From the NCBI GenBank assembly GCA_051252395.1, contig JBPOFX010000001.1, positions 557,835 to 621,834 of the forward strand: a DNA stretch of 64,000 bases. The letters run 5' to 3'. This document shows, one piece after another, positions 13,324 to 54,548 of the stretch. Within the stretch, counting starts at the first letter, position 1. Every line of letters begins with the position of its first letter. A program made the position numbers and the translations under genes. The DNA comes from Phycisphaerales bacterium. Lineage in GTDB: Bacteria > Planctomycetota > Phycisphaerae > Phycisphaerales > UBA1924. Below the pieces are notes generated by a model, which saw only the letters and a list, made by a program, of their open reading frames with translations, searched no databases and was not told where the DNA came from.

Positions 13324-13325
13324 TC

Positions 13326-29750: not shown

Positions 29751-29766
29751 GAATGTAACCTCTCAA

Positions 29767-32621: not shown

Positions 32622-32949
32622 ATGCGTCTGACGACTGAGACACCATGATCATTAAATGCGGATTGAAAGCGTCCTCACACGCGTCCACCCAGTTCTTCGG
32701 CGGGGCATGGTTTCAGACAGTCCTGGGCGTTCTCGATGCTGCGAGCGCCCCACTGCTTGCGGAGAAGAGTGGTGCGCGTGCTGGGCATGTTGAAGTTCGA
32801 GGAGTGTCGGGATCAACCGAGCCTCGGGCTGAGTCATTGGTGCTGATCCAGAGTCATCAAGGTGCGTGCACGAGGATGAGGACTGGATCTGCTGTGTCTG
32901 CGTGATTGGCTCACTCTCAATCCACTTCGATAGCCAGAGTTTTGAAGTC

Positions 32950-33205
32950 TGGAGATATGGGGATTCGAACCCCAGGGCGTAGCCCTTGACCTGTGATGCG
33001 TGCGGGACTCGAACCCGCGACCGGCGAGTTTGGTACTCGCTGCTCTAACCAGCTGAGCTAGCGCAACACGCTATGTTCATCGGGAGAACCCATGCCGCGG
33101 GACCCATGGACTTCAGAGAAGTTTGAGCCGCTGGACGATGGAACAAAGCGAATGGATGCAGAGGGAATCGAACCCTCAGCCGGGGGGAGATGCAATCCCT
33201 CCCCC
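32950..33205 (-). ncRNA. cluster of three tRNA-like modules in the rtc operon leader. One is a near-complete tRNA-like element (32994-33067) with anticodon-loop TACCAAA. One is a 3' tRNA fragment with encoded CCA (32950-32991). One is a 10-bp GC hairpin plus T-arm module (33131-33205).
   Basis: Minus strand. (i) A D-arm TAGCTCAGCTGGTTAGAGC, an anticodon arm GCGAG-TACCAAA-CTCGC (A at position 33, not the universal U) and a T-arm GCGGG-TTCGAGT-CCCGC. The acceptor pairs at only 5 of 7 positions. (ii) ...AGGGCTACGCCCT-GGGG-TTCGAAT-CCCC-ATATCTCCA. (iii) CCGGGGGGAG-GGATTGCAT-CTCCCCCCGG followed by GAGGG-TTCGATT-CCCTC-TGCATCCA. Confidence 0.55.
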
Positions 33206-33286
33206 CGGCGTGGCCAATATGCGATCCTGATTGATCATGGTGTCTCAGTTGTCAGAGAAGCAGCTTGTTGAGCTGAGATACAGCTA

Positions 33287-33302
33287 TGCAGTTGGTGTGC
33301 CA
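33287..33302 (-). promoter_or_regulatory. sigma54 (RpoN) -24/-12 promoter reading leftward into the tRNA-like leader, SPFH gene, rtcB and rtcA
   Basis: The minus strand reads TGGCAC-ACCAA-CTGCA, with GG and GC exactly 10 nt apart and one mismatch to TGGCAC-N5-TTGCW. It lies 113 bp from the divergent rtcR start codon, the canonical rtcR / rtcBA arrangement. Confidence 0.6.
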
Positions 33303-33414
33303 AAGATGTCGAAGCTGCTTATTTGCCTCTAATGGTCGTTTTTGAACACTTTGATGACCATGGATATCTATTTATCTATCAAAATATATCGTAATCTATC
33401 CGATATAATCGCCT

Positions 33415-35019: not shown

Positions 35020-35141
35020 CGGTTATCGACTTCAGCTTCGTCCATAATACGGCAGTGCCCCACAACCTGAAGCAGAGCAGGAAAACTTGTTGCCCCCTAC
35101 CATTCTTACGACCACTATCGAAGAAAGCAGACTATGAAATC

Positions 35142-35651
35142 ATGACGACGCCACCTGCAAACCAATCAAGTTCGGACCAACGCCCGGATTGGGACCAATA
35201 CTTCCTTGACCTCGCGGAACAAGTCAGCAGAAGATCTCCAGATCCGAACACAAAGCACGGTTGTGTGCTTGTCGACTCTGGACGCCGAGTACTGAGCACA
35301 GGCTATAACGGCCCCTTGTCTGGGCTTCCTCATGATTTGATTCGGTTTGATCGCCCAAATAAATATGACTGGTTTATTCATGCAGAAGATAACGCAGTCG
35401 CCTTTGCTCGGTGCGATCTTCGAGGAACAACCGCGTATATAACTGGAACCCCTTGCGTAGCCTGCTTTCGTCGGCTGCTACAGGTTGGAGTCATACGAAT
35501 CGTTCAGGGCGATCGCCATTCTGCATGCTTAGAGGCAAGAGAGATGGATGCCTGCCAGCAGATGGCCAGAGCAGTCGGTATCGAGTGGATTGTTTATGAC
35601 AATGACGGTATTCATCGATTGGGCCGAGATGGCTTCAGCAACTGCTCATAA
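35142..35651 (+). CDS. dCMP/cytidine deaminase-family zinc-dependent deaminase
   Basis: HAEDNA (H-A-E zinc/catalytic motif) and TPCVACFRRL (PCxxC) motifs. The start was chosen at the MTTPPANQ ATG inside the ORF-track ORF 35055-35651. Confidence 0.65.
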   Translation: MTTPPANQSSSDQRPDWDQYFLDLAEQVSRRSPDPNTKHGCVLVDSGRRVLSTGYNGPLSGLPHDLIRFDRPNKYDWFIHAEDNAVAFARCDLRGTTAYITGTPCVACFRRLLQVGVIRIVQGDRHSACLEAREMDACQQMARAVGIEWIVYDNDGIHRLGRDGFSNCS

Positions 35652-36694: not shown

Positions 36695-37765
36695 TCAGTC
36701 GTTGTCGATCCGCAGCATGCGATGGATTTCTTCGGATTTGAAACCCAGCAGCTTGGGTCGGACGATACCCGGCAGCGCGATCGCGTCGTAGAGTTCGTGC
36801 ACTACGCCTTGGATGCGTATCCAGTGCTCGGTTGCGCCGGTGTCCATGTTGATGATCTGTAGCGAGCAGCGTGGCTCGGCGTCACGCGAGCGGAGGTTTT
36901 CGTCGAGCGGGAGTCCTTGGAAAGTTCGGTTCTCTCGGGCTGCTGAAACGCCCACGACTGCGTATCGCCCGACGAATGCCATACCTCTTGCAAATCCCGG
37001 CACAAACGCGACCTCTGTAAAGGCGCCTGTGTTTATATCTGCGTAGCCGAAGAAACCGGTCCCAGCGTTGAGTAACCAAACTCGATCAGGATATGCAGCG
37101 TGCATCCTGGGAGAATGGGGCATGCTCAATCCTTCGCAGACGATGTCGTCGGTGCGTATATCCAAGAGTAGGCCGCCGTCGTTTCGTCGATCGCGCCATC
37201 CGTCGCTCACATCGCTTTTGCTGACCATTGTGGCGTAGGTCGGGGCGCCTGTGTCGGGATCGCCTGCGAGTCCATTGAGATGGCAGCGGTCTTCTGGCAC
37301 GGTGGCTGAGATAAACGGCGGCTTCCAGATCGGTCGGAAGCTGTGTCCTTCGCTGAGTGTTGCTACGGAGTTGAATGTGGTTGCGGCGAAGGCAGGCGGG
37401 CCGTCCTTCGGGAGCACGATGTCGTGCGTGTCTAGATCGCCTGTCGTGTATCCCACAGTCGGTACATACAGCGCGTCGTATCCATCGGGGGTCGTCCCGT
37501 CTTGTGGTACGAAGTTATCGAGGCGCCAGAGCTGATACTGAGTCGCCATCCACAACTGTCGCGCGTCAGGCGAGACCGCGAGTCCCATGCAGCGGCTAAA
37601 GTTTCGTTCATAGATGCTGAGTCGTCCGTCGGGCTGCAAGCCGATCAGGAATAGCTTCCCGGCTTGGTAGGTTGAGAACCCAAGGCTTACGCGATGTTCA
37701 GCCATCCACGATGTAGCATGGCGGGACGAGGTGATGATTAGATCATTTGGGGTTTGTTTCGACAT
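36695..37765 (-). CDS. conserved hypothetical protein (beta-rich; possibly TIGR03032/DUF4915-like)
   Basis: 356-aa ORF with good coding periodicity. No catalytic motif recognised. Family assignment is from weak memory only. Confidence 0.5.
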   Translation of the reverse strand: MSKQTPNDLIITSSRHATSWMAEHRVSLGFSTYQAGKLFLIGLQPDGRLSIYERNFSRCMGLAVSPDARQLWMATQYQLWRLDNFVPQDGTTPDGYDALYVPTVGYTTGDLDTHDIVLPKDGPPAFAATTFNSVATLSEGHSFRPIWKPPFISATVPEDRCHLNGLAGDPDTGAPTYATMVSKSDVSDGWRDRRNDGGLLLDIRTDDIVCEGLSMPHSPRMHAAYPDRVWLLNAGTGFFGYADINTGAFTEVAFVPGFARGMAFVGRYAVVGVSAARENRTFQGLPLDENLRSRDAEPRCSLQIINMDTGATEHWIRIQGVVHELYDAIALPGIVRPKLLGFKSEEIHRMLRIDND

Positions 37766-38008
37766 GAGGGGGATACTAGCCGGCGGATGTTTCGGTTGTT
37801 CGAACGCTTCTGAATGCTGAAATCATCGGTTCATAGTGATCGCGGCCTCAATTGGGCTGATCTTTCTGGTCGATGGCCGTGATGATCACAGATGATGTGC
37901 GGGTTGCTATGTGTCTAGAGGCTGTGGGGATGGGCGTGTAGTCCCAAATATTGAGGGTTTTCGTGTTTTTCTGATCGTGTATGCTGTGATCTGCTGTATT
38001 CTATTTCT

Positions 38009-41000
38009 TTGCTATTTGCACTCCTGCTAGTTATAGGAATCATGATGAAGAATACACCGGCTCATTTATCGACCCCTTCTATGGCCTTGGCATTGATGCT
38101 TGCTGCAGGAATGGCTTCGGCACAGTTGTCCGAGCCATTCCCAGCAGAGATGAATCTCTCATCGCTTAACGGGACGACGGGTTTCGCACTTACTGGGGTC
38201 GTCAATAACAGCTACACCGGTGTGGTGTCTTCTGCGGGCGATGTGAACGGCGATGGCATCGACGATGTGATCATTGGAAGGGCGAGTGCTTCTCCAAACG
38301 GGAACTCCGATGCAGGAGTAAGCTATGTGGTCTTTGGGAATGCAAATGCTGGATCAACAGGCTCAATCAGCGTCTCTTCACTGGATGGTTCGAATGGCTT
38401 TGTACTCAACGGGATCAGCCAATACGATAGAAGCGGTGGTGATGTTTCGTCTGCAGGTGATGTGAACGGTGACGGCTTCGACGATCTCATCATCGGAGCG
38501 AGAGGAGTTGATCCGAACGGTGAGAATCCAGGGCTAAGCAACGCCGGTGCTAGCTATGTAGTCTTCGGCGGTCCCGCAGTCGGTTCGGGCGGGGTTATCG
38601 AGCTTTCGTCGCTCAATGGCACCAACGGATTTGTAGTCAATGGGGCATATGATTATGACTTCAGCGGCACTTCAGTGTCGTCTGCTGGTGATGTGAACGG
38701 TGACGGTATCGACGATCTCCATGTTGGTGCCTCCGGTAGTGATCCTAACGGAACCTACGACGCCGGGAAGAGCTATGTAGTCTTTGGCAACGCAAGCTTG
38801 GGCTCAACAGGTTCTGTGGACCTGTCCTCGCTTAACGGTACGAATGGTTTCGTGATGAACGGGATTAGCAAATATGATCGGGTAGGGAGTGCCGTATCAT
38901 CAGCAGGAGATGTAAACGGTGATGGCATTGATGACCTCCTGGTCGGCTCAGGTGATGTTTACTATGCTGGAGCTACTCCAGGTTCGAGCTATGTGGTTTT
39001 CGGTAGTAAGTCGATTGGCTCGACTGGGGTCATCGAACTCTCCTCGCTCAACGGTGCGAACGGGTTCGCGATCAAAGGGGTCGATGATGATGATGGCAGC
39101 GGGTCTTCTGTCTCATCTGCGGGAGATGTGAATGGGGACGGGTTCAATGACCTGCTCATTGGGGCGAATCGGGCTCAACTGCCGTTTCCGCATAGCTATG
39201 GTTATGACACGGGTGTAAGTTATGTGGTCTTCGGAAGCCCAACTGTGGGTTCAACAGGAGACTTCGAACTCTCCACGCTCGACGGTACCAACGGTTTCGC
39301 ACTCGGCGGGATCGATTCTTATGATCGCGCAGGCTATTCAATATCATCTGCGGGTGATGTGAACGGCGACGGGATTGACGACCTACTCATCGGAGCGCCT
39401 CAAGCTGAACAAAGCAAAAAATATGGGTATTCAAAATCCATTGATACTGGCGAGAGTTATGTCATCTTTGGTAGCCCAAGTGTGGGTTCAAGCGGGATTT
39501 TCAAGCTCTCTGAGCTGAATGAGGCCAACGGATTCCTGCTCGTTGGGATTAACAATTACGATCGGAGCGGTAGCTCCGTGTCTTCTGCAGGCGACATGAA
39601 CGGCGACGGCATCGATGACATGATCATTGGTGCACTACAAACCCCCTACGGCTACGGAGAATCCGATCTGGGCTATGTTGTCTTCGGGCGATTGATCCCG
39701 CAGAAGTGGATACAAAGCGGCGGTGGTGATTTTGAGTCTGGTCCCAACTGGTTTACCGGTATGAGCCCTCGGTCTGGTCCCGTTACGGTCGAGCCTGAGT
39801 TTGGTGGCACCGTCACGCTGTCGCAGCCGGGGGCTTTGAATCTTGGATCGCTTGCGTTGGGATCAGAGCGTGGAGTGACGACGCTTGATATTGGTTCGTT
39901 GAGTCTGTTGAGTGTTCATGAATCGTTTGATGTATCGCCTTCTGCGGCGATCGCAGGATCGGGGATCTTTGTAGCGGATGCTGGGCTCATGAACAATGGG
40001 CTTCTTGGTGGTGATGGATTGTTCATCTTTTCAGAATCGGGTGTGGTCAACGAAGGCGAGATCGCCGCTCAGGATCTTTTCATCTTGGCAGATGTGACGA
40101 ATAACTCGTTGATCGATCTTGACGGGAACAGCACAGGCGATGATGGCCGCTCAGAGTTGGGCGTTGATGGTTTGCTCTCAAATCAAGCATCGGGCATCAT
40201 TCAGATGCGCCGAGCCGTAACTGAACTTGGTGTGTCAGCAGGTTTGGAGAATGCTGGACAGGTTTCGATTGCGTTCTCAGTTGCGGACATCGTCGGTGAT
40301 GTCACGAATCTCGGCACTCCTGACGGCATGGGTGGCTTTACACCGCTGGGCTCGATGGCGATCTCAGGAAGCTCGAGCGCGCTGCTCACCGACGATCTAA
40401 CCAACCAGAGCAGGGTGGTCCTGACAAGTGATTCGGAGCTCATTATCCTTGGTGGACTAGCAGGTAACGGCATCTCGGGTCCTGGCGGTCCGGGCACTGC
40501 GGGCATGGTCTTTATCGAAGATGGCATCAGTCCCGGCTTTAGCCCCGGTATCGCACGCTTTGACGGCGATTTGCAACTCGGGATTTTCAGCGAGATCCAG
40601 TTCGAGATCGCTGGAACGACACCTGGTGTTGGCGGCCATGATCAGATTGTTGTTGCCGGCACATTCGGCGTCAGTGGCAGCGCGAGCATTCAACTTACCG
40701 ATGGCTTCATACCGTCTGCTGGTGATATTTACCAGTTGCTTGAGTTCGGCGCGATCAATGGCGGCTTCTCATCACTGGCGATCGACGAGCAGTTGCTTGC
40801 TCTCAATGTTGACACAAGCAATCTGTTGATCGACGGCACGATCTCGATCCCCGTTGGCTGCCTCGCCGATCTGAACGGTGATGGTGTCCTGGACTTCTTT
40901 GATATTTCTGCGTTCTTAACCGCATTTGCAAATCAGGATCCGGCGTCGGACTTTAGTGGTGACGGGCTCTTTGATTTCTTTGACATCTCCGCGTTCCTCC

Positions 41001-41026
41001 AGGCGTACAGCAATGGCTGCCCATAA
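38009..41026 (+). CDS. secreted FG-GAP (integrin-alpha-like beta-propeller) repeat protein with C-terminal GC-type dockerin-like module
   Basis: 1005 aa. Signal peptide. About 9 copies of ...SSAGDVNGDG(I/F)DDL(L/I)IGA... spaced ~65 aa apart (FG-GAP calcium-binding blades). The C-terminus is GCLADLNGDGVLDFFDISAFLTAFANQDPASDFSGDGLFDFFDISAFLQAYSNGCP. Confidence 0.8.
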   Translation: MLFALLLVIGIMMKNTPAHLSTPSMALALMLAAGMASAQLSEPFPAEMNLSSLNGTTGFALTGVVNNSYTGVVSSAGDVNGDGIDDVIIGRASASPNGNSDAGVSYVVFGNANAGSTGSISVSSLDGSNGFVLNGISQYDRSGGDVSSAGDVNGDGFDDLIIGARGVDPNGENPGLSNAGASYVVFGGPAVGSGGVIELSSLNGTNGFVVNGAYDYDFSGTSVSSAGDVNGDGIDDLHVGASGSDPNGTYDAGKSYVVFGNASLGSTGSVDLSSLNGTNGFVMNGISKYDRVGSAVSSAGDVNGDGIDDLLVGSGDVYYAGATPGSSYVVFGSKSIGSTGVIELSSLNGANGFAIKGVDDDDGSGSSVSSAGDVNGDGFNDLLIGANRAQLPFPHSYGYDTGVSYVVFGSPTVGSTGDFELSTLDGTNGFALGGIDSYDRAGYSISSAGDVNGDGIDDLLIGAPQAEQSKKYGYSKSIDTGESYVIFGSPSVGSSGIFKLSELNEANGFLLVGINNYDRSGSSVSSAGDMNGDGIDDMIIGALQTPYGYGESDLGYVVFGRLIPQKWIQSGGGDFESGPNWFTGMSPRSGPVTVEPEFGGTVTLSQPGALNLGSLALGSERGVTTLDIGSLSLLSVHESFDVSPSAAIAGSGIFVADAGLMNNGLLGGDGLFIFSESGVVNEGEIAAQDLFILADVTNNSLIDLDGNSTGDDGRSELGVDGLLSNQASGIIQMRRAVTELGVSAGLENAGQVSIAFSVADIVGDVTNLGTPDGMGGFTPLGSMAISGSSSALLTDDLTNQSRVVLTSDSELIILGGLAGNGISGPGGPGTAGMVFIEDGISPGFSPGIARFDGDLQLGIFSEIQFEIAGTTPGVGGHDQIVVAGTFGVSGSASIQLTDGFIPSAGDIYQLLEFGAINGGFSSLAIDEQLLALNVDTSNLLIDGTISIPVGCLADLNGDGVLDFFDISAFLTAFANQDPASDFSGDGLFDFFDISAFLQAYSNGCP

Positions 41027-41043: not shown

Positions 41044-44000
41044 TCAGATATCGAGAAATTTAGCAGCGTTTTTTGTGTTCATCATATCTGGAAGATTGAT
41101 TGGACGAAACTTTTGAAGCGTCCCTTCAACATCATCCGCCAGGATAGCTCTGTTGGCACCCAGCGTAGATGCTACGGAAGTATCGATAAGTGAAGCAGAG
41201 TCCGAAGCGCTCATTTGCATTAATGCCCTGAGTCCGAACTCACGGATCGTTGTCCGCTCCATCGCACGCTCAAGGTTAGTGAGCGTGTCGCACCAAGCAA
41301 GTGCCCAGACACCTACGGCCGGTCCTTCTCTGAGGATGTGAACCAGATCTTTGTCAGGGCTCACTTTGGCTTCCTCCATCGAGAACGAGTAGTCGTCGCT
41401 CTTTCGCAAAGACCGAAGACGATGAAGCCCTGCGAGCACAAGAATGACTGGCTCACTAGCGATATCATTACGGTCCTCAACTAATTTTCGTACTTCTTCG
41501 ACAACCTGGTCCGCTTCTTTATGGGTCACAAATCGAGTGTTGATACCAGTTGCCTCAATGGCTTCGCCAATACGCCCGTGGATCGCATCATCTTCCGGCG
41601 TGGGATCAATCACGATTAAACGAGTACAAGGCGTAGAACCTGCAGTGATCGCGGCGGATACCAGCATTCCAAGCGATGGCTCCGGTTGTTGCCCCACAAT
41701 GAGTAGATTGGACCCTGACCTCTTGAGCAATGGCGCTGATGTTGGCGGAGCGATCGCAACCGCATCTCCAAGCAACACTCTCGGTACTGTCCGATTCGGA
41801 TACGCCTGTACAAAGGCCTCCACTGATACATCAAACTGAGCGGGACGGTTCCCTTCAAACACCACCGTGGATGTTCGGTTGTCATTTGTATTAGGCATCC
41901 GAACGAGACTTTCATCTCGCTCCGCATCAGAGAGCCAAGCTGTCTGGAATGGGCTGTTCCCCTCCACCAGTCCTCCGGCATTGTTGTAGATGGCTTCGCC
42001 TGGTCGCTCAAGAAGGCGTGCTGCATTGTTGTCTTCCCCCAGAATTAGATACGAATCCGCCTCTGAACACTGAAGCGCAATACGGACACCGATCTGCCCG
42101 AGCGTTGACCTTGCGAGTGAGTAGGAACCAGCGAGCGTCTGTGATCCGAGAATAACATGGACTCCAAAAGCGCGGCCTTGGCGAATAAGACGATCAAGAA
42201 GAAGGGTTGCCTCCGACGCTACATCATCGTCCTCAGTGAAGAACTCTTGGAATTCATCGATGAGCAGCAACACTCTTGGAAGCCGCTCCTCTGGAGCCAT
42301 CGACCTTGCAGAAGCAAGATTCTGTGCCCCCAACTTACGGAACAGATCACCACGGGTTGTCATTTCGTCATCGAGACGCTTCAGAACTGACAAACCAAAC
42401 TCTCTATCAGACTCGATCGCTACCGCCCGTACATGAGGGGCTTGATTTCCTGTGTACGCCTTGAACTCAACCCCCTTTTTGAAGTCAATTAGATATAGCT
42501 CGAGTTCGTCTGGGGAGTGCCATAGCATCGCCGCTGAAATAATGACATGCAGCAGGGTAGATTTACCAGATCCGGTTCTACCCGCTATCAGAGCATGTTG
42601 ACGGGTACCGAGACCCAATCGGAGTTCTTGATTCTTGTGAGCTCCAGATCGCCCGATCGGAATTACAAGCTCATCAGCGCAGGACTGTGACCAGATAGCG
42701 TCAGCATCGGGTACCAGTCGCTCGAAGGGGACTTCCACATTCCCTGCATACAACCCGGCTTGGCCAATACGCGTCAGCAGTTGAGCGGCGATTCGATCAT
42801 CCGGTTCCTCAAGCAGCGAAATGGATACCCCATCAAATCTGTCGTCGTCAAAAGCGATCTGGCTGTCGTTGATTTCAAGAACAACTGTATTTGATCGGAG
42901 TTCTTCCAGATTAAGATTCGAGGGGAGCTTGCTGCCTGCAGTTGTTGAAAGCAATGCATAGACACCACAGCGAGGACCAGACTCCAGAATACTTTTGAGT
43001 CGTGCGGCACCGATCTCCGTGAGCGCTTCGGGAAGATCGGCGATGACCACAAACCGGTATGGCTCAGAGATCTCTCCGGCGGCTATGTTGTACTCTTCAA
43101 TGGTCTCATAGTCTGCCCTCAGATACTTTTGGATAACCGTTTGCATGTGCTCGGTGATGTCTGAGAGCTGGCGCTCGATGGGCTGAGGATCCGCCCAGAT
43201 GCGCTGCCCTACTGGGGAAGGTTCTTGATCGGACAGTGTCATGAACTCCGCGAACGACTGACCAATCCCAATTGGATCTGCCAACATGAACCGTACTTTC
43301 CCGGCTGGGAATGATGCGAGTATGCGGAGTATCGAGTTTCGCATTGTTGAGAGTGCCTGCTCTCGCCCCTGAGAACCATGCCGGATTATCAATGATCGTT
43401 GCCCTGGGAGTGACCAGACAACAGGCGTATCTATGGCCATAGGCACCACAAGATCTCCACGGATACTTTCTGCGAAACGGTTGAGTGCTGGTTCTAGATC
43501 CTGATGTCCATTCGCAATTGAGATGACTCTTGGGACAGTCGTTGCATGTTCTGATTCAAGCGCTGACAACCAATCGGGATTCGAACTTTGCGCTAGTTCT
43601 TGCGTACCTTTAATGAGGCTCAGCGCAACCCTTGTCAATTCAGCTACCCGTTCACGGCCGGAAGCGAGTTCGGCTTCATATTCTTTTGACATGACATCAG
43701 AAATGTTGGCGCACTTACTCTTTGCGTCTTCGCAAAGCTGACGGTGCTTCTCGTGAGCCGTTTCAAGCTGCTTGGTGTACCAAGATTCAATCTCGGAAGT
43801 ATCATCTGAAACTCGTTTTTGAATCTCTTCTGATTGTGAAGTAAACTTTTCGTGCTCTAGCCGAACCTGCTCCCCAGCCTTTGTATCCAATGCGAGTACT
43901 GATTGCTGATACTTGCGTTCAGCATTCTGGTATTCAATCTTTCGAGCATCACTCATCTTTCCCAAGATAAGTTCGTGCTGTGTTGCGACATTGTCTTGAA

Positions 44001-44820
44001 GCGTTAGAGTGTAGGCTTTGGCGTTGATTATCTGGTTGCTGGCCTCAATCCCTAACTCCAGTGATTTGGCTCCGCCTCGGATCAGTTTGCGAATACCCCC
44101 ATCTTTGTAGTTGGAAATCGCAAGATCGATATTATGGACTAAAGTGCGCAGGCCATCAAGTGTAACATCGCCTGGGAGTGCTTGGTGAACATCGCTGCCC
44201 TGTGCCACCTTTGCCGCTCTGGCTGGACCAAGCTCAACCATCAGCTGAGTGAACTGTTCTTCGATAGTTTTTTGAAGATCGGAAAGATCTCTGGAAAAAG
44301 CGTCATGTTCATTCTGGGCTTTCTTGAATGAGGACTCGTAGATGGTATCCGCCATCCATGCGCTCTCTTCACGCACTTTCTTCGCACGTTGAACACCATT
44401 GTTGTATCCCCCACGAGTTTGATGTATCCGCTGATCATGCTCCAACTTGAGAGCTTCAAGCTTTCCGTCATACTTGTCATCCAGTTTCGTTTGGGCCTCA
44501 ACCTTTCTCTGCTCGATGGCGACAAGCTTTTCGGCTAGTTTGGTATCAGCAAGCTTAAGCTGTCGATCTCGATTTTCTTCCACTGCATTGATGGTCTCTT
44601 TGCGGAGTGTTGTTGCTGAATCGATACGGTTTGCGTATTCATCAAGACCAATCCGGAGCAATGCAAATGCATCTGCTTGCGCGTCATAGCCGGGGCGATG
44701 ATCACTCATTGCAGATACGGACACTGAGAGAATCGAATCAGGATCATTCACACGCACGCCTCGCCTCTTCACAGATTGATTGCAAACGCTCCATCGCATC
44801 GCGTGATTGCCTGGCAGCAT
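41044..44820 (-). CDS. FtsK/SpoIIIE-family P-loop ATPase (EssC/EccC-like architecture) with ~450-aa N-terminal coiled-coil region; no transmembrane segment seen
   Basis: Walker A GRTGSGKST and Walker B LLLIDEFQEF in the first ATPase domain. A second, degenerate FtsK-like domain follows (LLIVGQQPEPS...VIDPTPEDD). The true start is probably the internal MSDHRPG (44709), which removes the overlap with the upstream small ORF. Confidence 0.75.
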   Translation of the reverse strand: MLPGNHAMRWSVCNQSVKRRGVRVNDPDSILSVSVSAMSDHRPGYDAQADAFALLRIGLDEYANRIDSATTLRKETINAVEENRDRQLKLADTKLAEKLVAIEQRKVEAQTKLDDKYDGKLEALKLEHDQRIHQTRGGYNNGVQRAKKVREESAWMADTIYESSFKKAQNEHDAFSRDLSDLQKTIEEQFTQLMVELGPARAAKVAQGSDVHQALPGDVTLDGLRTLVHNIDLAISNYKDGGIRKLIRGGAKSLELGIEASNQIINAKAYTLTLQDNVATQHELILGKMSDARKIEYQNAERKYQQSVLALDTKAGEQVRLEHEKFTSQSEEIQKRVSDDTSEIESWYTKQLETAHEKHRQLCEDAKSKCANISDVMSKEYEAELASGRERVAELTRVALSLIKGTQELAQSSNPDWLSALESEHATTVPRVISIANGHQDLEPALNRFAESIRGDLVVPMAIDTPVVWSLPGQRSLIIRHGSQGREQALSTMRNSILRILASFPAGKVRFMLADPIGIGQSFAEFMTLSDQEPSPVGQRIWADPQPIERQLSDITEHMQTVIQKYLRADYETIEEYNIAAGEISEPYRFVVIADLPEALTEIGAARLKSILESGPRCGVYALLSTTAGSKLPSNLNLEELRSNTVVLEINDSQIAFDDDRFDGVSISLLEEPDDRIAAQLLTRIGQAGLYAGNVEVPFERLVPDADAIWSQSCADELVIPIGRSGAHKNQELRLGLGTRQHALIAGRTGSGKSTLLHVIISAAMLWHSPDELELYLIDFKKGVEFKAYTGNQAPHVRAVAIESDREFGLSVLKRLDDEMTTRGDLFRKLGAQNLASARSMAPEERLPRVLLLIDEFQEFFTEDDDVASEATLLLDRLIRQGRAFGVHVILGSQTLAGSYSLARSTLGQIGVRIALQCSEADSYLILGEDNNAARLLERPGEAIYNNAGGLVEGNSPFQTAWLSDAERDESLVRMPNTNDNRTSTVVFEGNRPAQFDVSVEAFVQAYPNRTVPRVLLGDAVAIAPPTSAPLLKRSGSNLLIVGQQPEPSLGMLVSAAITAGSTPCTRLIVIDPTPEDDAIHGRIGEAIEATGINTRFVTHKEADQVVEEVRKLVEDRNDIASEPVILVLAGLHRLRSLRKSDDYSFSMEEAKVSPDKDLVHILREGPAVGVWALAWCDTLTNLERAMERTTIREFGLRALMQMSASDSASLIDTSVASTLGANRAILADDVEGTLQKFRPINLPDMMNTKNAAKFLDI

Positions 44821-44956
44821 TCTCTACGGGATCGATAAACTCAGCTTCAAACCTATCGGCATTTTGATCTGACCACGATGACCGGCATCTCTGCCATGAT
44901 TGATGCAGACTCTTAACCGCATCGCTCAAAATCCCCACACCTGAAGACCTGCTCAT
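44744..44956 (-). CDS. small helical WXG100-like protein (paralog B)
   Basis: 70 aa. Central SSWSDQNADRFEAEF matches the HTWRDQEHAKFQGEF motif of the 90-aa ORF. It overlaps the start of the 188-aa ORF by 4 nt. Confidence 0.45.
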   Translation of the reverse strand: MSRSSGVGILSDAVKSLHQSWQRCRSSWSDQNADRFEAEFIDPVENAARQSRDAMERLQSICEEARRACE

Positions 44957-45519
44957 GGTTGCTGCTCCCCTGAGGTGTCATGCTTGTCATTGGATGCTGA
45001 ATCATTGCTTGGATTTGGACTCTGCGCAGACTTTGATTGCTCAGGTGAACCGGAGTCCATATACGCATCTATTGCTGTAGTAAGCGAATCAAGCCGAGCA
45101 ACTCCGCGGGTCATGCATGATTGTGCAAGCTCTGACATTGGTTGAATCGTTCCTCGATACTGATCAATCTCTTTTTCTATAGTCCGTATCCACCTGCGAG
45201 TGAGTTCCTGCTTCTCTTCTGCTTCACGCACGCGGCGTTTAGCGAACTCAAATTCCTTCCGTGCATCGACCGATGGCCTCGGCTCTTTGCTCGCGGTCTG
45301 CTGGATGAGCTTCGTGTTGGCGCGAACAGCGTCTTCGGAACGGATCCGAATCTCACGCTTCCAGTACGAGAGGCGGTCATGCTGCAGCCAGCTCAATACC
45401 TTCATCGCATCGCTGCGATCGCTGTTCAATGCGGACTGGCTCACTTCACCAAACTTAATTAATGCAGGACGAAGATCTGCGAGAGCTTTGACATCCGTTA
45501 TCCGCGCGGCGTTCCCCAT
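44953..45519 (-). CDS. hypothetical protein (188 aa) inside the FtsK/WXG-like operon
   Basis: It lies 3 nt downstream of the 90-aa ORF and is coupled to the 70-aa ORF. It is helical, with a Ser/Asn/Asp/Glu/Gln-rich acidic C-terminal tail. Confidence 0.45.
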   Translation of the reverse strand: MGNAARITDVKALADLRPALIKFGEVSQSALNSDRSDAMKVLSWLQHDRLSYWKREIRIRSEDAVRANTKLIQQTASKEPRPSVDARKEFEFAKRRVREAEEKQELTRRWIRTIEKEIDQYRGTIQPMSELAQSCMTRGVARLDSLTTAIDAYMDSGSPEQSKSAQSPNPSNDSASNDKHDTSGEQQP

Positions 45520-45521
45520 GT

Positions 45522-45794
45522 CTATCGCTGCCTTAGATATTCTTCGATACGATCGGCCTTTCGAAGCAGGAAGGGCACTTGCTCGTCGATCGATTCTTTG
45601 AACCGAGCCAACTGACGCATGGTTTGATCAAACTCGCCTTGAAACTTGGCATGCTCCTGATCTCGCCATGTATGTCCGAGGCTGGCCATCTGCCCATTGA
45701 GCTGCGTGAGCTCTTGATCCATACCATTCCCGAACCGCTTCAGCATCTGAGCGAAACGGCGGATTTCATCGGGATCTGCTACTGCTTTGGCCAT
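45522..45794 (-). CDS. small helical-hairpin WXG100-like protein (paralog A)
   Basis: 90 aa, the typical size. Central W-x-D/G...F-x-G-E-F motif (LGHTWRDQEHAKFQGEF). It is the first gene of a tight minus-strand operon ending in the FtsK-family ATPase. Confidence 0.5.
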   Translation of the reverse strand: MAKAVADPDEIRRFAQMLKRFGNGMDQELTQLNGQMASLGHTWRDQEHAKFQGEFDQTMRQLARFKESIDEQVPFLLRKADRIEEYLRQR

Positions 45795-48383: not shown

Positions 48384-48995
48384 CTAACCATGCCACCGGG
48401 GTCGGCTTGCGAAACCTGATTGAACAGGATCCCGATTGGCCATCGCCTGAACAGCCGAATCCTGACTGAGGTGGTCGAGGTATTGAATCGTGGTCAGCAG
48501 AGACACATGCCCAAGCTGCCGCTTGATGATCGCGACATCAAGACCCTCGCTCCGGAGCTCTGAAGCGTGGGTATGCCGCAACCCATGCGAATGAATGCGT
48601 TTATAGATACCAGCTACGCGACCCAGCTCGGGCAGCCGCCTTCGCCAGTACCCCTGTGTCATGACCTGCCCTGAACCTGTTAGGAACAATGGATCGCCGA
48701 TCGTGTGCCCCCTGGCCGAATGCTCTTCAATCCACTCAACGATCTCCTGAAGACCCAATGGATCGATCCCGATCGTTCTTGCCCTGCCACCCTTTCCACG
48801 AAGTACCCGTATCGCTCCCCTTTCGGAATCAACATCACATGGACGAATTGCCAACGCTTCAGATAGCCGCAGGCCAGTCCGATACAGAAGTACGATCAGC
48901 GCATAGTTCCGCCGATCGGTCCACTTCTCTTTCCCGCACGCCTCGAGCAACGCCCCCACTTCCTTCCTCGTTAAGACCTCTGCTGGGTACTTCAT
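48384..48995 (-). CDS. tyrosine site-specific recombinase, short form (203 aa, catalytic domain only; FimB/FimE/Xer size class)
   Basis: R...HxxR...Y catalytic set: GLRLSEA (Arg I), HGLRHTHAS (HxxR), GHVSLLTTIQYL (Tyr). There is no N-terminal core-binding domain. Confidence 0.8.
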   Translation of the reverse strand: MKYPAEVLTRKEVGALLEACGKEKWTDRRNYALIVLLYRTGLRLSEALAIRPCDVDSERGAIRVLRGKGGRARTIGIDPLGLQEIVEWIEEHSARGHTIGDPLFLTGSGQVMTQGYWRRRLPELGRVAGIYKRIHSHGLRHTHASELRSEGLDVAIIKRQLGHVSLLTTIQYLDHLSQDSAVQAMANRDPVQSGFASRPRWHG

Positions 48996-49077
48996 GGCCA
49001 GCTCCTATGGATACGCTTTGTCAGTAAAGCTGTATCCATCAGTGATACCACCACTCCCGAGCATGAAGCAAGGCCGA

Positions 49078-49293
49078 TTACGGCGGTTCGCTCGATTTTT
49101 CTGGCTGCTGTGTATCAACTACCACGAAGCGTGTCACAAGCGGGAGCTCCCCGCACAGCTCGCACGGCTCGGGAAGCGGATCACCCTGAAAGAGGAAGAC
49201 CTGCCCGCCCCGCTCGCGGCAGTGGCGACAGCCCCACATCGCCCGGACCGCATGCTCGATCGTGTTCAATCGTGATGAAAGATTGCGTTTCAT
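49078..49293 (-). CDS. small zinc-ribbon-like protein (CxxC...CxxC)
   Basis: 71 aa with CRHCRERGG...CELCGELP. It overlaps the upstream HTH gene by 4 nt. Confidence 0.35.
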   Translation of the reverse strand: MKRNLSSRLNTIEHAVRAMWGCRHCRERGGQVFLFQGDPLPEPCELCGELPLVTRFVVVDTQQPEKSSEPP

Positions 49294-49694
49294 AGCGAAG
49301 ACTCCGAGGCGATGCGTTCGAGCGCGTCGATGCGTGAAACAAGGTCATCAAGTTCGATGCTCTCACGCGCAAACCTCAGCACCTGCGACGCCGCATTGAC
49401 CCTCGACGACCAGGTCGCCTTGGGATCGTGCATGATCCGCAAGAGCACCGCCACCGCACCCGCCGAGGACCGCTGCGTCAATCCGATTGCCTGCGCGAAC
49501 GCCTCTCTCCTGCTCCTCCGGTACTCATTGGCAAAGTCCTCCTGCCGGAGCCACCGATGCAGTGTCCGCTCCCCTACCCCTGCCTTGCTCGCCGCCGCCG
49601 CTATCGACGGCTCGGTCAGTAATGCCAAGATCGACTGCTCCTGCGCCGATGTCAGCCCGAGTTCGTGTTCATTCCCCATCATTCCCCCCTTCAA
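49290..49694 (-). CDS. helix-turn-helix DNA-binding protein (phage/element regulatory or terminase-small-subunit-like)
   Basis: 134 aa with an LTEPSIAAAASKAGVGERTLHRWL HTH segment. Confidence 0.45.
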   Translation of the reverse strand: MKGGMMGNEHELGLTSAQEQSILALLTEPSIAAAASKAGVGERTLHRWLRQEDFANEYRRSRREAFAQAIGLTQRSSAGAVAVLLRIMHDPKATWSSRVNAASQVLRFARESIELDDLVSRIDALERIASESSL

Positions 49695-49723
49695 AGAAAT
49701 CTCTCATTCTCTCCTGATACGCC

Positions 49724-50263
49724 TTGCAATCTGAGCCACCTGATGCCTTCATGGTGTCAACCACCCCCGACTACCCGCTTGTAGCAGGCAGTCAAAGCAT
49801 GGAGAACAAGACGATGAAAACAAAATCCACGAACAGTAAACCCAAGGTCATCCCAGCAACGAGCAGAGCGAAACAAGCACCCAAGGGCAAGGCTTCGCCC
49901 GTGGGCGGCGACAAGGGCGTGTCACGCGGCCCAGCCAAGAAGGCGACGCCCGTAGCCAACGCGCCCCAACAACGAGCACACGCCAACACAACGCGCCGTG
50001 CGGGGAAAGCAAAAGCCGCACCAAGTCTCAGTTGCTTGCAAGCTGCGGAAGTTGTACTCGCCGACGCCCCCGTCGAGGGATGGAGTACCAAAGAGATCGT
50101 CGAACGCATGGCCGCCAAGAAGCTCTGGAGCAGCCCCAACGGCAAGACCCCGGAAGCCACCCTGTACGGGGGCATAGTGCGTGAGATCGAACGCAAGCGC
50201 GAAGCAGCCCGCTTCCTAAAGGTCGGACGCGGTCGCTTCACCCTCCGGCCATCGGGCGATTGA
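49724..50263 (+). CDS. histone-H1-like K/A/P-rich region fused to a C-terminal winged-helix (Mrr-N/HARE-HTH-like) domain
   Basis: N-terminal KPKVIPATSRAKQAPKGKASPVGGDKGVSRGPAKKATP low-complexity basic region. C-terminal W-x-x-KEIVERM...TPEATLYGGIVREI...FLKVGRGRFTL pattern. The start is possibly the internal MENKTMKT. Confidence 0.45.
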   Translation: MQSEPPDAFMVSTTPDYPLVAGSQSMENKTMKTKSTNSKPKVIPATSRAKQAPKGKASPVGGDKGVSRGPAKKATPVANAPQQRAHANTTRRAGKAKAAPSLSCLQAAEVVLADAPVEGWSTKEIVERMAAKKLWSSPNGKTPEATLYGGIVREIERKREAARFLKVGRGRFTLRPSGD

Positions 50264-50357
50264 TTCATTCGCCCCTTGCGAACACGCCTCCGTTTACGCG
50301 GGGGCGTTCTCAGTTGGTTGACAGGCTCTTCGTGCTGTATTGATTCATCGTCAAAGC

Positions 50358-51764
50358 TCATTGCTCACACCCGACTACACTCGCTACACGCTCGGCCTTC
50401 TTCCCCGTAAACGCCTCCCACCGATTCACGATCACATCGCAGTACGCCGGATCGATCTCCATGAGCCGAGCGTGCCGCCCCATCTGCTCAGCCGCCATCA
50501 GCGTCGAGCCCGACCCACCAAATAGATCCAACACCCGTTCCCCTCGCTTCGACGAGTACTCCATTGCCCTTGACGCAAGCTCGACCGGCTTCTCGGTCAG
50601 ATGCACCATGCTTTGGGGGTTCACCTTCTTGATCGGCCAGACATCGGGGATGTTCTTGGGCCCGTAGAACCTGTGCGCCGCACCCTCACGCCACCCGTAG
50701 AAACACCACTCGTGGTCGCCCATGAAGTCCTTGCGCCCCAGCACCGGATGGAGCTTGTGCCAGATGATCGACTGGCTGAAGTACAAGCCCGAATCCGTGA
50801 ACGCACCAGGATAGTTAGCGATGTTCGCGTACCCGCCCCAGCAGTAGAATGCCCTCCCCGGCTCCAATACACGGGCCATATTGCCAAACCATGCCCGGAG
50901 CATGATTGCGAAGGATTCATCGTCCATAAAGTCGTTGGCGAGCGGGCGGTCTTTCGCACGCATCTTCTTGGTGGTCGGTGACGATTTACCGGGATGCCGG
51001 GCAAGATCCCGCTGCTGCATGTGCGTGCTTGCTTTGGTTGCCGCCGCTGGGAACGATGAGAGACCCGCACTGATCGCGTTGTTTGAGCGCGGCTCAACCT
51101 TCACGTTGTACGGCGGATCGGTGTTGACGAGATGGATGCTCTGACCATCACACAACCGATCGACATCCTCAGCCTTCGAGCTATCCCCGCAGAGGAGTCG
51201 GTGGTTCCCCAGGATCCACAGATTACCCGGCTTGGTGATCGGGTCGTCGGGAGCTTCGGGGATCACATCGGGATCGGGTTCGGTTCCGACTCCCCCCATC
51301 GTGAGCGACGCAAGCTGCGCATCGTCAAAGCCGAACGCCGCCAGTTCCTCGATATCGATCCCCAACGCGACGAGCGCCTCGAGCTCGCTGTCGAGCAGCC
51401 CTGTGTCCCAGTGCGCGAGCTCTGCGGCCCGGTTGTCGGCCAGCCGGTACGCCCTCGCCTTCTCCGGAGTGAGGTCCGTTGCGACATGCACCGGGACCTC
51501 GCTGAGCCCCAGCTGCTGCGCCGCCTTCCACCGCGTGTGCCCGCAGACGATCACCATGTTGCGATCAACAACGATCGGCTGCCTGAACCCAAAGTCCGTG
51601 ATACTCTTGGCGACCGCGTCGATCGCCTGATCGTTGATCCTTGGGTTGGTCTCGAATGGTGTGATGTCCCCCACTGTCTTCATTTCTATCTTCATCTGGT
51701 TCCCCCTTTGTTCTGTTGTGTGACAGGTGACAGATCGTGACAGGTTTTCCAAGAAGTCCCCCAT
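50358..51764 (-). CDS. ParB-like nuclease (ParB/Srx) domain fused to an amino-group DNA methyltransferase (N6-A / N4-C, DPPY motif)
   Basis: The N-terminal GHTRWKAAQQLG matches the ParB GxxRxxAA box. Mid-protein VNTDPPYN (MTase motif IV) and C-terminal SAM-binding blocks are present. This fusion is common in phages and ICEs. Confidence 0.8.
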   Translation of the reverse strand: MGDFLENLSRSVTCHTTEQRGNQMKIEMKTVGDITPFETNPRINDQAIDAVAKSITDFGFRQPIVVDRNMVIVCGHTRWKAAQQLGLSEVPVHVATDLTPEKARAYRLADNRAAELAHWDTGLLDSELEALVALGIDIEELAAFGFDDAQLASLTMGGVGTEPDPDVIPEAPDDPITKPGNLWILGNHRLLCGDSSKAEDVDRLCDGQSIHLVNTDPPYNVKVEPRSNNAISAGLSSFPAAATKASTHMQQRDLARHPGKSSPTTKKMRAKDRPLANDFMDDESFAIMLRAWFGNMARVLEPGRAFYCWGGYANIANYPGAFTDSGLYFSQSIIWHKLHPVLGRKDFMGDHEWCFYGWREGAAHRFYGPKNIPDVWPIKKVNPQSMVHLTEKPVELASRAMEYSSKRGERVLDLFGGSGSTLMAAEQMGRHARLMEIDPAYCDVIVNRWEAFTGKKAERVASVVGCEQ

Positions 51765-51910
51765 ACGCGCGCGTAGGAAAAGTCTTGGGAATATCTGTCA
51801 TACCTGTCACCATTTCCGTAAGTCATTGATTTTAATTGCCTTAAGCAGTGACAGATAGCATTCGGATCTGTCACCAATCTGTCATTTTCCCTTCTATCTG
51901 TCATGGTGCT
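51720..51910. repeat. iteron-like array: about 10 direct and inverted copies of TGACAG / (AT)CTGTCA(CC)
   Basis: gtgacaggtgacagatcgtgacagg ... atctgtcatacctgtcacc ... cagtgacagatag ... gatctgtcaccaatctgtcatttt ... ctatctgtcatgg, lying between the primase stop and the ParB-MTase start. Confidence 0.5.
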
Positions 51911-54105: not shown

Positions 54106-54110
54106 CCCCG

Positions 54111-54545: not shown

Positions 54546-54548
54546 ATA

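Follow-up and report, generated by a model that had tools for sequence, protein, structure and literature searches.

A minus-strand cluster of four genes, p90, p188, p70, and an EssC-like ATPase, was confirmed as real in the 64,000-nt stretch of contig JBPOFX010000001.1 from a Phycisphaerales bacterium (hereafter the window). The locus is probably a Planctomycetota member of the known cassettes that combine a solo WXG100 protein with a distinct YueA/EssC-like ATPase, that is, a minimal type VII-like module for T7SS-like targeting and translocation. What mainly sets the window's copy apart is the loss, from its ATPase, of the membrane anchor kept by most relatives. The original prediction allowed for a machine of a new kind, but such cassettes have already been described by comparative genomics in Zhang et al. 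2012 and in Bell et al. 2024.

Gene organization and distribution

All four predicted open reading frames were present (Table 1). A gap of 2 nt separates p90 from p188, and p188 and p70 share a 4-nt ATGA overlap. Initiation of the ATPase at ATG 44820 would give a 77-nt overlap with p70; GTG 44751, which yields the 1235-aa NCBI model P0001, or ATG 44709 is the more likely start. The ATPase is 100% identical to a 1235-aa "FtsK/SpoIIIE domain-containing protein" of an NCBI Phycisphaerales MAG.

Among the 81 loci compared from Planctomycetota and Verrucomicrobiales, about 65 have this gene order, and no further neighbour is conserved within 10 kb on either side.

Table 1. Features of the cassette, in positions of the window
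Feature	Position	Strand	Description or basis
p90	45522-45794	-	90-aa WXG100 protein, HP0062 type (by sequence)
p188	44953-45519	-	Long alpha-helical hairpin and disordered polar tail (predicted)
p70	44744-44956	-	70-aa divergent WXG100-like paralogue
EssC/EccC-like ATPase, likely extent	41044-44751	-	Family, PDB, and Foldseek matches
Longest ATPase ORF, 1258 aa	41044-44820	-	ORF call
Antiparallel coiled-coil hairpin, N-terminal	43582-44643	-	ORF aa 60-413; two helices of about 150-165 residues
Hairpin-tip junction (…IRG/GAK…)	44068-44079	-	ORF aa 247-252; TM pair cleanly deleted
ATPase domain 1, degenerate	42727-43539	-	AF2 alpha/beta domain, model residues about 370-640; motif conservation
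ATPase domain 2, intact	41932-42684	-	Pfam FtsK_SpoIIIE 95 bits, aa 741-895
ATPase domain 3, degenerate	41047-41709	-	AF2 alpha/beta domain, model residues about 980-1200; motif conservation; Foldseek

WXG100-like proteins p90 and p70

By its profile matches, p90 is a genuine WXG100 protein, closest to HP0062 of H. pylori. Its Pfam WXG100 score of 38.3 bits lies above the cutoff of 27.3, and its family profile matched, among solved structures, HP0062 best (3fx7, E 2.8e-13), followed by EsxB/EsxA (1e-10 to 1e-6); its homologues are labelled "WXG100 family type VII secretion target" in the NCBI annotation. The protein carries a TW-R-D turn motif at aa 42-45, in which Asp stands in place of the WXG glycine (WxD, not WxG), and a strongly conserved C-terminus, VPFLLRKAxRIEEYLxQR. 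Residues W43, D45, E47, and F51 were invariant in 39 p90 homologues, mean column identity was 65% across classes and phyla, and dN/dS against locus L001 was 0.026.

The second small protein, p70, carries a W28-x-D30 motif, with W28 and D30 invariant in 38 homologues, and a conserved C-terminal Cys69. It remained under the cutoffs of both Pfam WXG100 (17.3 bits against 27.3) and TIGR03930 (E 2e-4). Among all ORFs of the window, the p90-family HMM matched p70 with E 1.7e-5 and the reverse search gave 9.4e-5; hhalign aligned the two families at the WxD motif (P 9e-4). The shared W-x-D motif of the original prediction thus stands, and the similarity exceeds chance. Of the predicted WXG100 pair, p90 passed the PF06013 check, whereas p70 is a divergent paralogue of it. 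p70 was detected in 63 of the 81 loci by phmmer and in 72 by HMM, always just upstream of the ATPase.

Helical protein p188

The AF2 model of p188 (pLDDT 79) showed helices at aa 10-75 and 84-156 and a disordered polar tail at aa 158-188. The gene sits between p90 and p70 in 67 of the 81 loci. Its family comprises 2066 clusters at 50% identity, in which the matched part is always residues 1 to about 170, followed by variable C-termini: none, Imm33-like (PF24719), or in one case a phosphodiesterase. We infer that p188 corresponds to a conserved N-terminal carrier domain, to which variable C-terminal domains are attached in its relatives. The nuclease toxin at the position of p188 in a Helicobacter cassette was counted in favour of this carrier logic, although homology of p188 to the N-domain of that protein was not significant. 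A weak match was obtained to the N-terminus of a 436-aa Caballeronia protein (P 7e-4). No cargo domain and no Pfam LXG match were detected in the window's p188.

Architecture and affinity of the ATPase

One intact and one degenerate FtsK domain had been predicted, but three FtsK-like domains were found, of which the central one alone is predicted to be active. In 75 of 75 homologues, domain 2 has invariant Walker A (G747-R-T-G-S-G-K-S754) and Walker B (D855-E856) motifs. Domain 1 has G485-R486 instead of the Walker A GK[ST] and hhhhAD/N at the Walker B position (75 homologues), and domain 3 is without the Walker A lysine and the Walker B acidic pair. The N-terminal coiled-coil helices lie at residues 2-150 and 192-355 of the AF2 model.

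The predicted affinity to EssC/EccC was borne out by three comparisons. In phmmer searches of the PDB, EccC (1e-30) was far ahead of TcpA (2e-11) and FtsK (1e-9); NCBIfam gave a match to EccCa (9e-34); and the three domains were collinear with D1-D3 of EccC in Foldseek. These results place the ATPase beside EccC/EssC and away from FtsK and the TcpA-type conjugative translocases. With these best matches and with p90 as a WXG100 protein, neither outcome that the original prediction had set against itself, mini-proteins of another fold or a conjugative ATPase, was found.

Loss of the membrane hairpin

The maximum 19-residue Kyte-Doolittle mean of the window's ATPase was 1.43, in agreement with the impression by eye that it has no TM segment. 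By hydropathy scan and alignment, two adjacent TM segments form a hairpin at the coiled-coil tip in 70 of 75 full-length relatives. The description of the system as one without a membrane ATPase consequently applies to the window's copy but not to the family. Clean, in-frame loss of the hairpin characterises the window's marine Phycisphaerales subclade, and the TM-less form was found in at least 16 clusters (54-100% identity) with Walker motifs and partner genes intact. Despite this loss, all four genes are under strong purifying selection, with dN/dS of 0.026-0.105 against a 71%-identical relative. The proteobacterial and actinobacterial ATPase relatives checked had no clear TM segment.

Proposed function and alternatives

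In the favoured reading, an elongated bundle of helices would form from p90, p70, and p188, by analogy with the LXG-Lap1-Lap2 pre-secretion complexes of T7SSb (PMC9600955, PMC10801868). It may serve as the substrate that the ATPase hexamer recognises and then unfolds or translocates, powered by ATP at domain 2. The two-TM hairpin found at the tip of the coiled-coil stalk in most PVC relatives would anchor the ATPase; six copies could supply 12 TM helices, so that the cassette could export alone across the cytoplasmic membrane. In the TM-less subclade, the ATPase, probably still functional, would need either the basic juxtamembrane residues that it has kept or a partner encoded elsewhere to reach the membrane; alternatively, it may act on its helical partners in the cytoplasm.

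Several observations count against export. No membrane component is encoded near the cassette across 80 loci, and the window's ATPase is itself TM-less; Planctomycetota are diderm-like, with no outer-membrane route evident; and the window's p188 bears no cargo, its relation to the nuclease N-domain being weak or not significant. In addition, the 76-77-aa genes that take the place of p70 in proteobacterial cassettes showed no significant similarity to it, and the WXG glycine is replaced by Asp.

A rather less likely alternative, still to be taken seriously, is a cytoplasmic machine without export, in which the p90/p70/p188 complex is remodelled, unfolded, or taken apart by a soluble ATPase hexamer, either in a stress or anti-phage response of the kind proposed for the TerY-P/CoCoNuT-linked versions or in PVC housekeeping. 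The window's ATPase and 16 close clusters are TM-less and yet under strong purifying selection, and the proteobacterial and actinobacterial relatives without a clear TM segment stand beside TerY-P/CARF/VWA or TerD genes. Bell et al. (PMC11090510) judge a different mechanism likely. The very high conservation of p90 is unusual for a secreted effector and suits a fixed interaction within the cell more than a substrate in an arms race. The ATPase clades are mostly congruent with taxonomy, suggesting a long-resident, non-mobile function in PVC. However, 70 of the 75 PVC relatives keep the anchor at the stalk tip, and the WHH nuclease polymorphic toxin and SUKH immunity of the Helicobacter version imply delivery out of the cell. 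As for defence, PADLOC matched only the generic FtsK domain, and no conserved adjoining defence genes were found at the PVC cassettes.

That the ATPase is instead a conjugative or segregational DNA translocase (TraB/TcpA/FtsK-like) of the neighbouring integrative element is very improbable. An FtsK_SpoIIIE domain is present, through which PADLOC gave partial matches to SspH and Mad8, and an integrase, a ParB-methylase, a D5 primase, and a serine recombinase lie 2.5-12 kb away. Against this stand the much closer relation to EccC/EssC and the degeneracy of two of the three ATPase domains, as in T7SS ATPases. Furthermore, the cassette occurs in more than 60 genomes among unrelated neighbours and without the element, and no family members were found in IMG/VR. 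The cassette as a whole also lies outside the adjacent integrative element: pxpABC separates it from the integrase, and the neighbours differ in every other genome.

Equally improbable is a decaying remnant, inactivated by the clean deletion of the anchor and drifting, since the low dN/dS of all four genes and the intact motifs and partners of the TM-less clusters speak against it.

Comparison with known systems

The FtsK, TraB, and TcpA translocases share the FtsK/HerA P-loop fold of domain 2, but they are much weaker matches (E 1e-9 to 2e-11 against 1e-30 for EccC) and are single-domain motors. Neither a gamma nor a DNA-binding domain is present in the window's ATPase.

With T7SSa/ESX, the cassette shares EccC (4nh0) as the best sequence and fold match, tandem WXG100 genes upstream, and, in the relatives, the EccC topology of two TM helices preceding the stalk and ATPase domains. 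It differs in having no EccB, EccD, EccE, or MycP, in the catalytic domain lying between degenerate ones, in an N-terminal cytoplasmic part formed by a 150-200-aa helix, and in an EccCa score of 117 bits (cutoff 509). The T7SSb of Bacillota similarly has an EssC-like multi-domain FtsK ATPase with small WXG100 proteins, and LXG-Lap1-Lap2 likewise joins a helical N-domain protein with variable C-terminal domains to two small helical partners. Unlike T7SSb, the cassette has no FHA domains, no EssA, EssB, EsaA, or YukD genes, a single ATPase domain predicted active (the middle one), no LXG match in p188, WxD in place of WxG, and a diderm-like host; the NCBIfam EssC score was 78 bits (cutoff 778).

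A further counterpart of p90 and the ATPase is the H. pylori "WXG100 secretion system" locus of HP0062 (PDB 3FX7/2GTS) and the FtsK/SpoIIIE protein HP0066. The WRD turn is common to p90 and HP0062, whose gene lies in a cluster with an FtsK/SpoIIIE gene (PMC3397514); both proteins are about 86-90 aa long and lack a signal peptide. In crystals HP0062 formed a homodimer, whereas a p90/p70 heteropair is suspected here. The plasmid cassette of Helicobacter sp. NHP19-012 (L085) has the same order of WXG100, middle protein, small protein, and ATPase, but its middle protein has a WHH/colicin-DNase toxin at the C-terminal end, a SUKH immunity gene comes next, and its ATPase is shorter (823 aa).

The closest comparison is with the solo-WXG cassettes, also credited to Anantharaman et al. 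and exemplified by plasmid pSBC2-5 of Caballeronia sp. SBC2 (L083). Zhang et al. 2012 (PMC3482391, Table 1 footnote 6) list planctomycetes and verrucomicrobia among the lineages that have solo WXG genes together with a YueA-like ATPase in which only the middle domain is active. Bell et al. 2024 (PMC11090510) describe an ATPase with an N-terminal coiled coil and two WXG100 proteins, the CoCoNuT-linked ATPases being without TM helices. Homology to the Caballeronia, Helicobacter, and Rhodococcus plasmid cassettes was detected directly at the sequence level. The ATPase shared 29% identity over 869 aa with the Caballeronia TerY-P/CoCoNuT-linked ATPase (E 7e-82); p90 shared 39% with the plasmid WXG100 (E 6e-22, hhalign probability 99.4), which the p70 HMM also matched (E 3e-8). 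The Helicobacter cassette matched through its 89-aa protein (E 1e-14), and that of Rhodococcus through the p188 HMM (E 1e-6) and a WXG100-like protein (E 6e-13).

Common to the window and these cassettes are three FtsK/HerA domains with the middle one alone active by prediction, a coiled coil instead of FHA domains, the absence of TM segments in the window's copy, and one clear and one cryptic WXG100-like mini-protein around a middle gene with a helical N-domain. In contrast to the exemplars, the window's cassette stands alone, without TerY-P, VWA, CARF, or McrBC neighbours, without a nuclease domain in the middle protein, and without an immunity or DNA-mimic gene. Most PVC relatives carry the two-TM hairpin that the CoCoNuT-linked ATPases, as described in the available text, lack. 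The coiled coil is also much longer in the window's ATPase (about 350 aa against about 100-200), and in PVC its inheritance appears mostly vertical, not "mobile".

Organization of the cassette and its surroundings

The four minus-strand ORFs of the original prediction were all found as described, at the coordinates in the table below. The p90 and p188 genes lie 2 nt apart, those for p188 and p70 overlap at ATGA, and the longest ATPase ORF overlaps the p70 gene by 77 nt. The public protein record P0001 ('MAG: FtsK/SpoIIIE domain-containing protein [Phycisphaerales bacterium]') is identical to the window ATPase but only 1235 aa long, which points to the GTG at 44751 as the start; an alternative ATG start is located at 44709. 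No second FtsK-like or WXG-like gene was found in the window, and a promoter and terminator scan of the cassette returned sites no commoner than in shuffled sequences.

Features of the window, with coordinates and strand
Feature	Description	Position	Strand
p90	90 aa, WXG100 protein	45522-45794	minus
p188	188 aa, helical hairpin	44953-45519	minus
p70	70 aa, cryptic WXG100-type protein	44744-44956	minus
ATPase	1258 aa, longest ORF	41044-44820	minus
DUF4915 and FG-GAP genes	356-aa protein, then 1005-aa FG-GAP repeat protein	36695-41026	
Right-flank island	resembles mobile or defence island	48384-62722	
RNA-repair set	RtcA, RtcB and RtcR	28734-35019	
RtcA		28734-29750	minus
RtcB		29767-31281	minus
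tRNA-Trp	between RtcB and RtcR	32993-33067	
RtcR	sigma-54 activator	33415-35019	plus
875-aa ORF	no Pfam match	20322-22949	
DUF5724/DUF4132/DUF7737 gene	1645 aa	23205-28142	
Deaminase-like ORF	198 aa, cytidine/deoxycytidylate deaminase-like	35055-35651	

The neighbours of the cassette are the FG-GAP protein, pxpABC and then an integrase, and they are not syntenic even in L001, a relative's locus with 71% identity. Only 17 nt lie between the convergent FG-GAP and ATPase genes. The FG-GAP protein has a hydrophobic segment at its N-terminus and an Asp-rich repeat (…DLNGDG…DFFD…) at its C-terminus. The right-flank island encodes a short tyrosine integrase, 203 aa in length, together with an HTH protein, a ParB-N6/N4 methylase fusion, a D5-type primase-helicase, a large serine recombinase, the HsdM and HsdS proteins of a type I R-M system, and a SIR2_2 protein. 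Its GC content is 0.56-0.60 against approximately 0.50 in the cassette, and pxpABC lies between the two. Elsewhere in the window, further ORFs accompany the tRNA gene between RtcB and RtcR, the 875-aa ORF adjoins the DUF5724/DUF4132/DUF7737 gene, and the deaminase-like ORF also matches MafB19-like deaminase, a toxin-type family (E 1e-8).

Properties of the small proteins

The p90 protein scored 38.3 bits against the Pfam WXG100 family (PF06013; cutoff 27.3) and 30.3 bits against TIGR03930, which is below the cutoff of 44.85. It is thus a member by the Pfam cutoff of the WXG100 family of canonical T7SS substrates, and its homologues are labelled 'WXG100 family type VII secretion target' by an NCBI source, with a mean column identity of 65% across phyla. 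The turn of p90 reads TWRD, with WRD rather than WxG. The p90 profile (A1), built from 39 homologues, gave Helicobacter pylori HP0062 (3fx7/2gts) as the top match (E 2.8e-13), followed by EsxB of Bacillus and EsxA of Staphylococcus aureus and streptococci.

The p70 protein was sub-threshold against WXG100 (17.3 bits), with an E-value of 2e-4 for TIGR03930. The family HMMs of p90 and p70 matched reciprocally (1.7e-5 and 9.4e-5), hhalign placed the two in register at WxD (P 9e-4), and the p70 HMM matched a proteobacterial WXG100 protein (3e-8). The motif reported as common to both proteins is real and not accidental, as W43, D45, E47 and F51 of p90 and W28 and D30 of p70 are invariant in the family alignments. 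The proposal of a WXG100-like pair was therefore confirmed directly for p90, while p70 fell below the Pfam cutoff and is connected through its HMM link to p90. The operon contains two WXG100-type mini-proteins, one recognisable and one cryptic.

The AF2 model of p188 (pLDDT 79) showed a single long helical hairpin (aa 10-75 and 84-156) with a disordered tail. No match to p188 was detected in Pfam, NCBIfam or the PDB sequences, and a Foldseek search of the model against the PDB returned generic coiled-coil hairpins only (E>0.05). PADLOC gave zero matches for p90, p188 and p70.

Domain structure and affinity of the ATPase

Pfam detected one FtsK_SpoIIIE domain in the ATPase (aa 741-895). The AF2 model (pLDDT 71) consisted of an antiparallel hairpin of two helices of ~150-165 residues (model residues 2-150 and 192-355), followed by three alpha/beta domains. 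Among 75 homologues, only the central domain had invariant GxTGSGKS (Walker A) and hhhhDEFQ (Walker B) motifs, and motif conservation in the same set showed that domains 1 and 3 are degenerate. One intact and one degenerate FtsK-like domain had been expected; the intact domain was found, but there are three domains in total, of which the first and third are degenerate. The N-terminal coiled coil takes the place of FHA domains and TM helices, and no FHA domain was matched in the window ATPase.

The best Foldseek match was the three-ATPase cytoplasmic region of Thermomonospora curvata EccC, which was collinear over 945 columns (E 6e-18). The next were EccC and EssC D2-D3, whereas FtsK and TcpA matched as single domains only. 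Likewise, the PDB sequence ranking was EccC (1e-30), YukB (1e-13), TcpA (2e-11) and FtsK (1e-9), and the NCBIfam E-values were 9e-34 for EccCa, 7e-24 for EccCb and 4e-22 for EssC. The bit scores remained far below the equivalog cutoffs (EccCa, 117 against 509; EccCb, 84 against 347; EssC, 78 against 778); the ATPase has domains homologous to those of EccC/EssC and is not an equivalog of them. A grouping with TraB/TcpA-type FtsK proteins, named as the outcome that would overturn the original prediction, was not obtained (EccC 1e-30 versus TcpA 2e-11), and a conjugative or segregational FtsK-TraB-TcpA translocase is rejected on this ranking, the three tandem domains and the genomic context. PADLOC returned only partial SspH, Mad8 and HerA matches for the ATPase, through its generic FtsK domain.

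Loss of the membrane anchor in the window ATPase

The absence of a TM segment noticed by eye was borne out by hydropathy analysis, in which the maximum KD mean of the window protein was 1.43. The scan took in 75 full-length family ATPases, and 70 of them contained two adjacent strongly hydrophobic segments (KD 2.0-2.9, ~aa 210-290), which the alignment places precisely at the hairpin tip of the coiled coil. The TM anchor of canonical T7SS ATPases is thus present in most relatives and lost in the window copy. The typical family member accordingly has the EssC/EccC topology, in which an N-terminal cytoplasmic part is followed by two TM helices, then by a stalk and three ATPase domains.

The window protein groups with those of the relatives' loci L001-L003 in a single clade of the NJ tree, and all four share a clean in-frame deletion at the tip, at the junction of IRG and GAKSLELG. 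The segment was missing from each of the 16 protein clusters with 54-100% identity to the window ATPase and present in the next four (29-38% identity). A soluble ATPase is therefore a derived trait of one subclade of marine Phycisphaerales, and this lineage-specific loss of the membrane anchor is the distinctive point of the window copy. In L065 (Phycisphaerae bacterium NAT149), which falls outside the TM-less clade in the NJ tree, the segment is mostly lost, with a short Trp-rich remnant at ATPase aa ~200-260. The ATPases of the Caballeronia, Helicobacter and Rhodococcus plasmids have no clear TM segment either.

The dN/dS values against L001 were 0.026 for p90, 0.05 for p70, 0.105 for p188 and 0.077 for the ATPase. 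These values show that the TM-less cassette is under purifying selection and is not decaying, and a pseudogene is rejected on this basis.

Distribution of the cassette in relatives

The scan for relatives, with one genome per GTDB species, yielded at least 516 confirmed relatives, and the best 80 were analysed. All of these 80 belong to Planctomycetota (Phycisphaerae, Pirellulales, Gemmatales and Isosphaeraceae) or Verrucomicrobiales. Across the 81 loci compared, p90 was found in 65, p188 in 67 and p70 in 63, in the order p90-p188-p70-ATPase, and the loci short of cassette genes were mostly truncated contigs. Four loci (L055, L074, L079 and L081, the last at 7042-13903) have ample upstream sequence yet no recognisable p90 and p188 beside the ATPase; in L081, a TPR gene lies between small upstream ORFs and a p70-like gene. 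The cassette in these four loci may be rearranged or more divergent.

All-against-all ORF clustering of the 81 loci (10 kb on each side) revealed no other conserved neighbour, the next family being present in 8 loci. As only the four cassette genes are conserved, the locus has no EssB/EccB/EccD/MycP-type partner. None of the membrane components EssA/EssB/EsaA or EccB/EccD/EccE/MycP was conserved in this range, so that the suggested search for EssB/EccB/EccD-like genes nearby came back empty. The clades of a rough NJ tree of the ATPase were mostly congruent with taxonomy, with few exceptions. IMG/VR contained no family member, only generic single-domain FtsK matches.

Clustered at 50% identity, the p188 family comprised 2066 clusters with E<=1e-3, of which 1256 reached E<=1e-10. 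Approximately 40% of its best PVC representatives are 320-410 aa long, and the members of this size that were tested have a C-terminal Imm33-like domain (PF24719). The variability of the C-terminal domains indicates that the p188 N-domain behaves as a carrier, which is the logic of WXG/LXG-fused T7SS effectors. One record, P0362 (674 aa), joins the p188-family N-domain to a type I phosphodiesterase/nucleotide pyrophosphatase domain, the sole enzymatic cargo among the PVC-type carriers tested.

Related cassettes on plasmids

The window cassette has sequence homology to exemplar cassettes, and tblastn against plasmids recovered three cassettes (L083, L084 and L085). In Caballeronia pSBC2-5 (L083), the genes encode VWA, WXG100, 436-aa, 113-aa and 76-aa proteins and FtsK, followed by CARF, VWA, PP2C, kinase and AAA-domain proteins. 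The window ATPase was 29% identical to the Caballeronia ATPase in an 869-aa alignment that spans all three domains (E 7e-82), the p90 profile matched the Caballeronia WXG100 protein (39% identity, E 6e-22), and the p188 profile aligned weakly with the first 210 aa of the 436-aa protein (P 7e-4). The Helicobacter plasmid (L085) encodes an 89-aa protein that matches p90 (E 1e-14), a 340-aa protein with a C-terminal WHH/colicin-DNase domain, a SUKH (SMI1/KNR4) immunity protein, a 77-aa protein and FtsK; the p188 profile had no significant match to the N-terminus of its HNH toxin. The p70 profile was likewise not significant against its positional equivalents in Caballeronia (76 aa) and Helicobacter (77 aa).

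The Rhodococcus conjugative plasmid (L084) has the order TerD-fused ATPase, 314-aa, 73-aa and 87-aa proteins, in which the p188 HMM matched the 314-aa protein (E 1e-6) and the p90 HMM the 87-aa protein (E 6e-13). This permuted cassette (L084 6489-11919, Rhodococcus sp. AH-ZY2) has a 1322-aa ATPase with N-terminal TerD, and TerD and DUF475 genes adjoin it.

Possible function of the cassette

The three small proteins p90, p70 and p188 would probably assemble as a helical bundle, in the manner of LXG-Lap1-Lap2 (PMC9600955, PMC10801868). A hexameric ATPase would then recognise and translocate this bundle, with ATP used at domain 2. In the TM-bearing relatives, the 12 TM helices of the hexamer might serve as a conduit, and should the cassette export proteins, it would reveal the minimal requirements of a T7SS, in diderm-like bacteria and with no channel other than the TM helices of the ATPase. 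The window copy could be recruited to the membrane by a partner or by its retained basic juxtamembrane residues, or could be a cytoplasmic module.

Alternatively, the soluble hexameric EssC-type ATPase would be a cytoplasmic unfoldase or disassembly machine acting on WXG100-like bundles, with a long-standing, vertically inherited cellular role in Planctomycetota/Verrucomicrobiota and not in toxin export. We consider this unlikely, although the very high conservation of p90 and the lack of a cargo domain on p188 keep it alive. Since this cassette is naturally TM-less yet strongly conserved while others are anchored, the core activity could proceed without membrane insertion. The TM-bearing and TM-less orthologues are natural matched variants with which the need for insertion can be addressed.

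Comparison with described systems

The feature is real and was correctly spotted. The results show that the window cassette is a four-component member, broadly distributed in PVC bacteria, of the 'solo WXG plus YueA-like ATPase' class (Zhang et al. 2012, PMC3482391). The class is large, common in Planctomycetota and Verrucomicrobiales, with related cassettes in H. pylori and on plasmids. The literature search found no experimental study of any member of this stripped-down WXG100/EssC-like class.

Bell et al. 2024 (PMC11090510) describe a version inserted in Type III-A CoCoNuT/TerY-P loci. Its EssC homologue is active in the central domain alone and has an N-terminal coiled coil that replaces the TM helices and FHA domains; the other products are a coiled-coil-nuclease fusion, a DNA-mimic-like protein and two WXG100 proteins, of which one lacks the motif. 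These authors consider a mechanism other than canonical secretion likely, and for stand-alone copies they refer to Anantharaman et al. 2012. The window ATPase likewise has three FtsK-like domains with the central one alone active. The coiled-coil-nuclease fusion and the immunity/DNA-mimic gene of the CoCoNuT-linked form are absent from the window cassette, in which p188 is a helical domain with a disordered tail only and p188 and p70 have no intervening gene; these two components are accessory to the class and not universal.

The likeness of p188 to LXG-Lap1-Lap2 is by analogy only, as p188 lacks the LXG domain (PF04740), for which 40 p188 homologues gave no Pfam match at E<=0.01. The top match of p90, HP0062, is an 86-aa helical hairpin without a signal peptide; 'WRD' stands in its bend, and its gene is clustered with one for FtsK/SpoIIIE (PMC3397514). 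The same TWRD is found in p90. The H. pylori HP0062/HP0066 locus has been named a 'WXG100 secretion system' (Uchiyama et al. 2016, PMC4978471). The published descriptions and existing annotation indicate that the kind is known from comparative genomics, and the suggested machine of a new kind thus belongs to an already-noted class. The proper label for the locus is a minimal T7SS-like cassette, not a DNA translocase.
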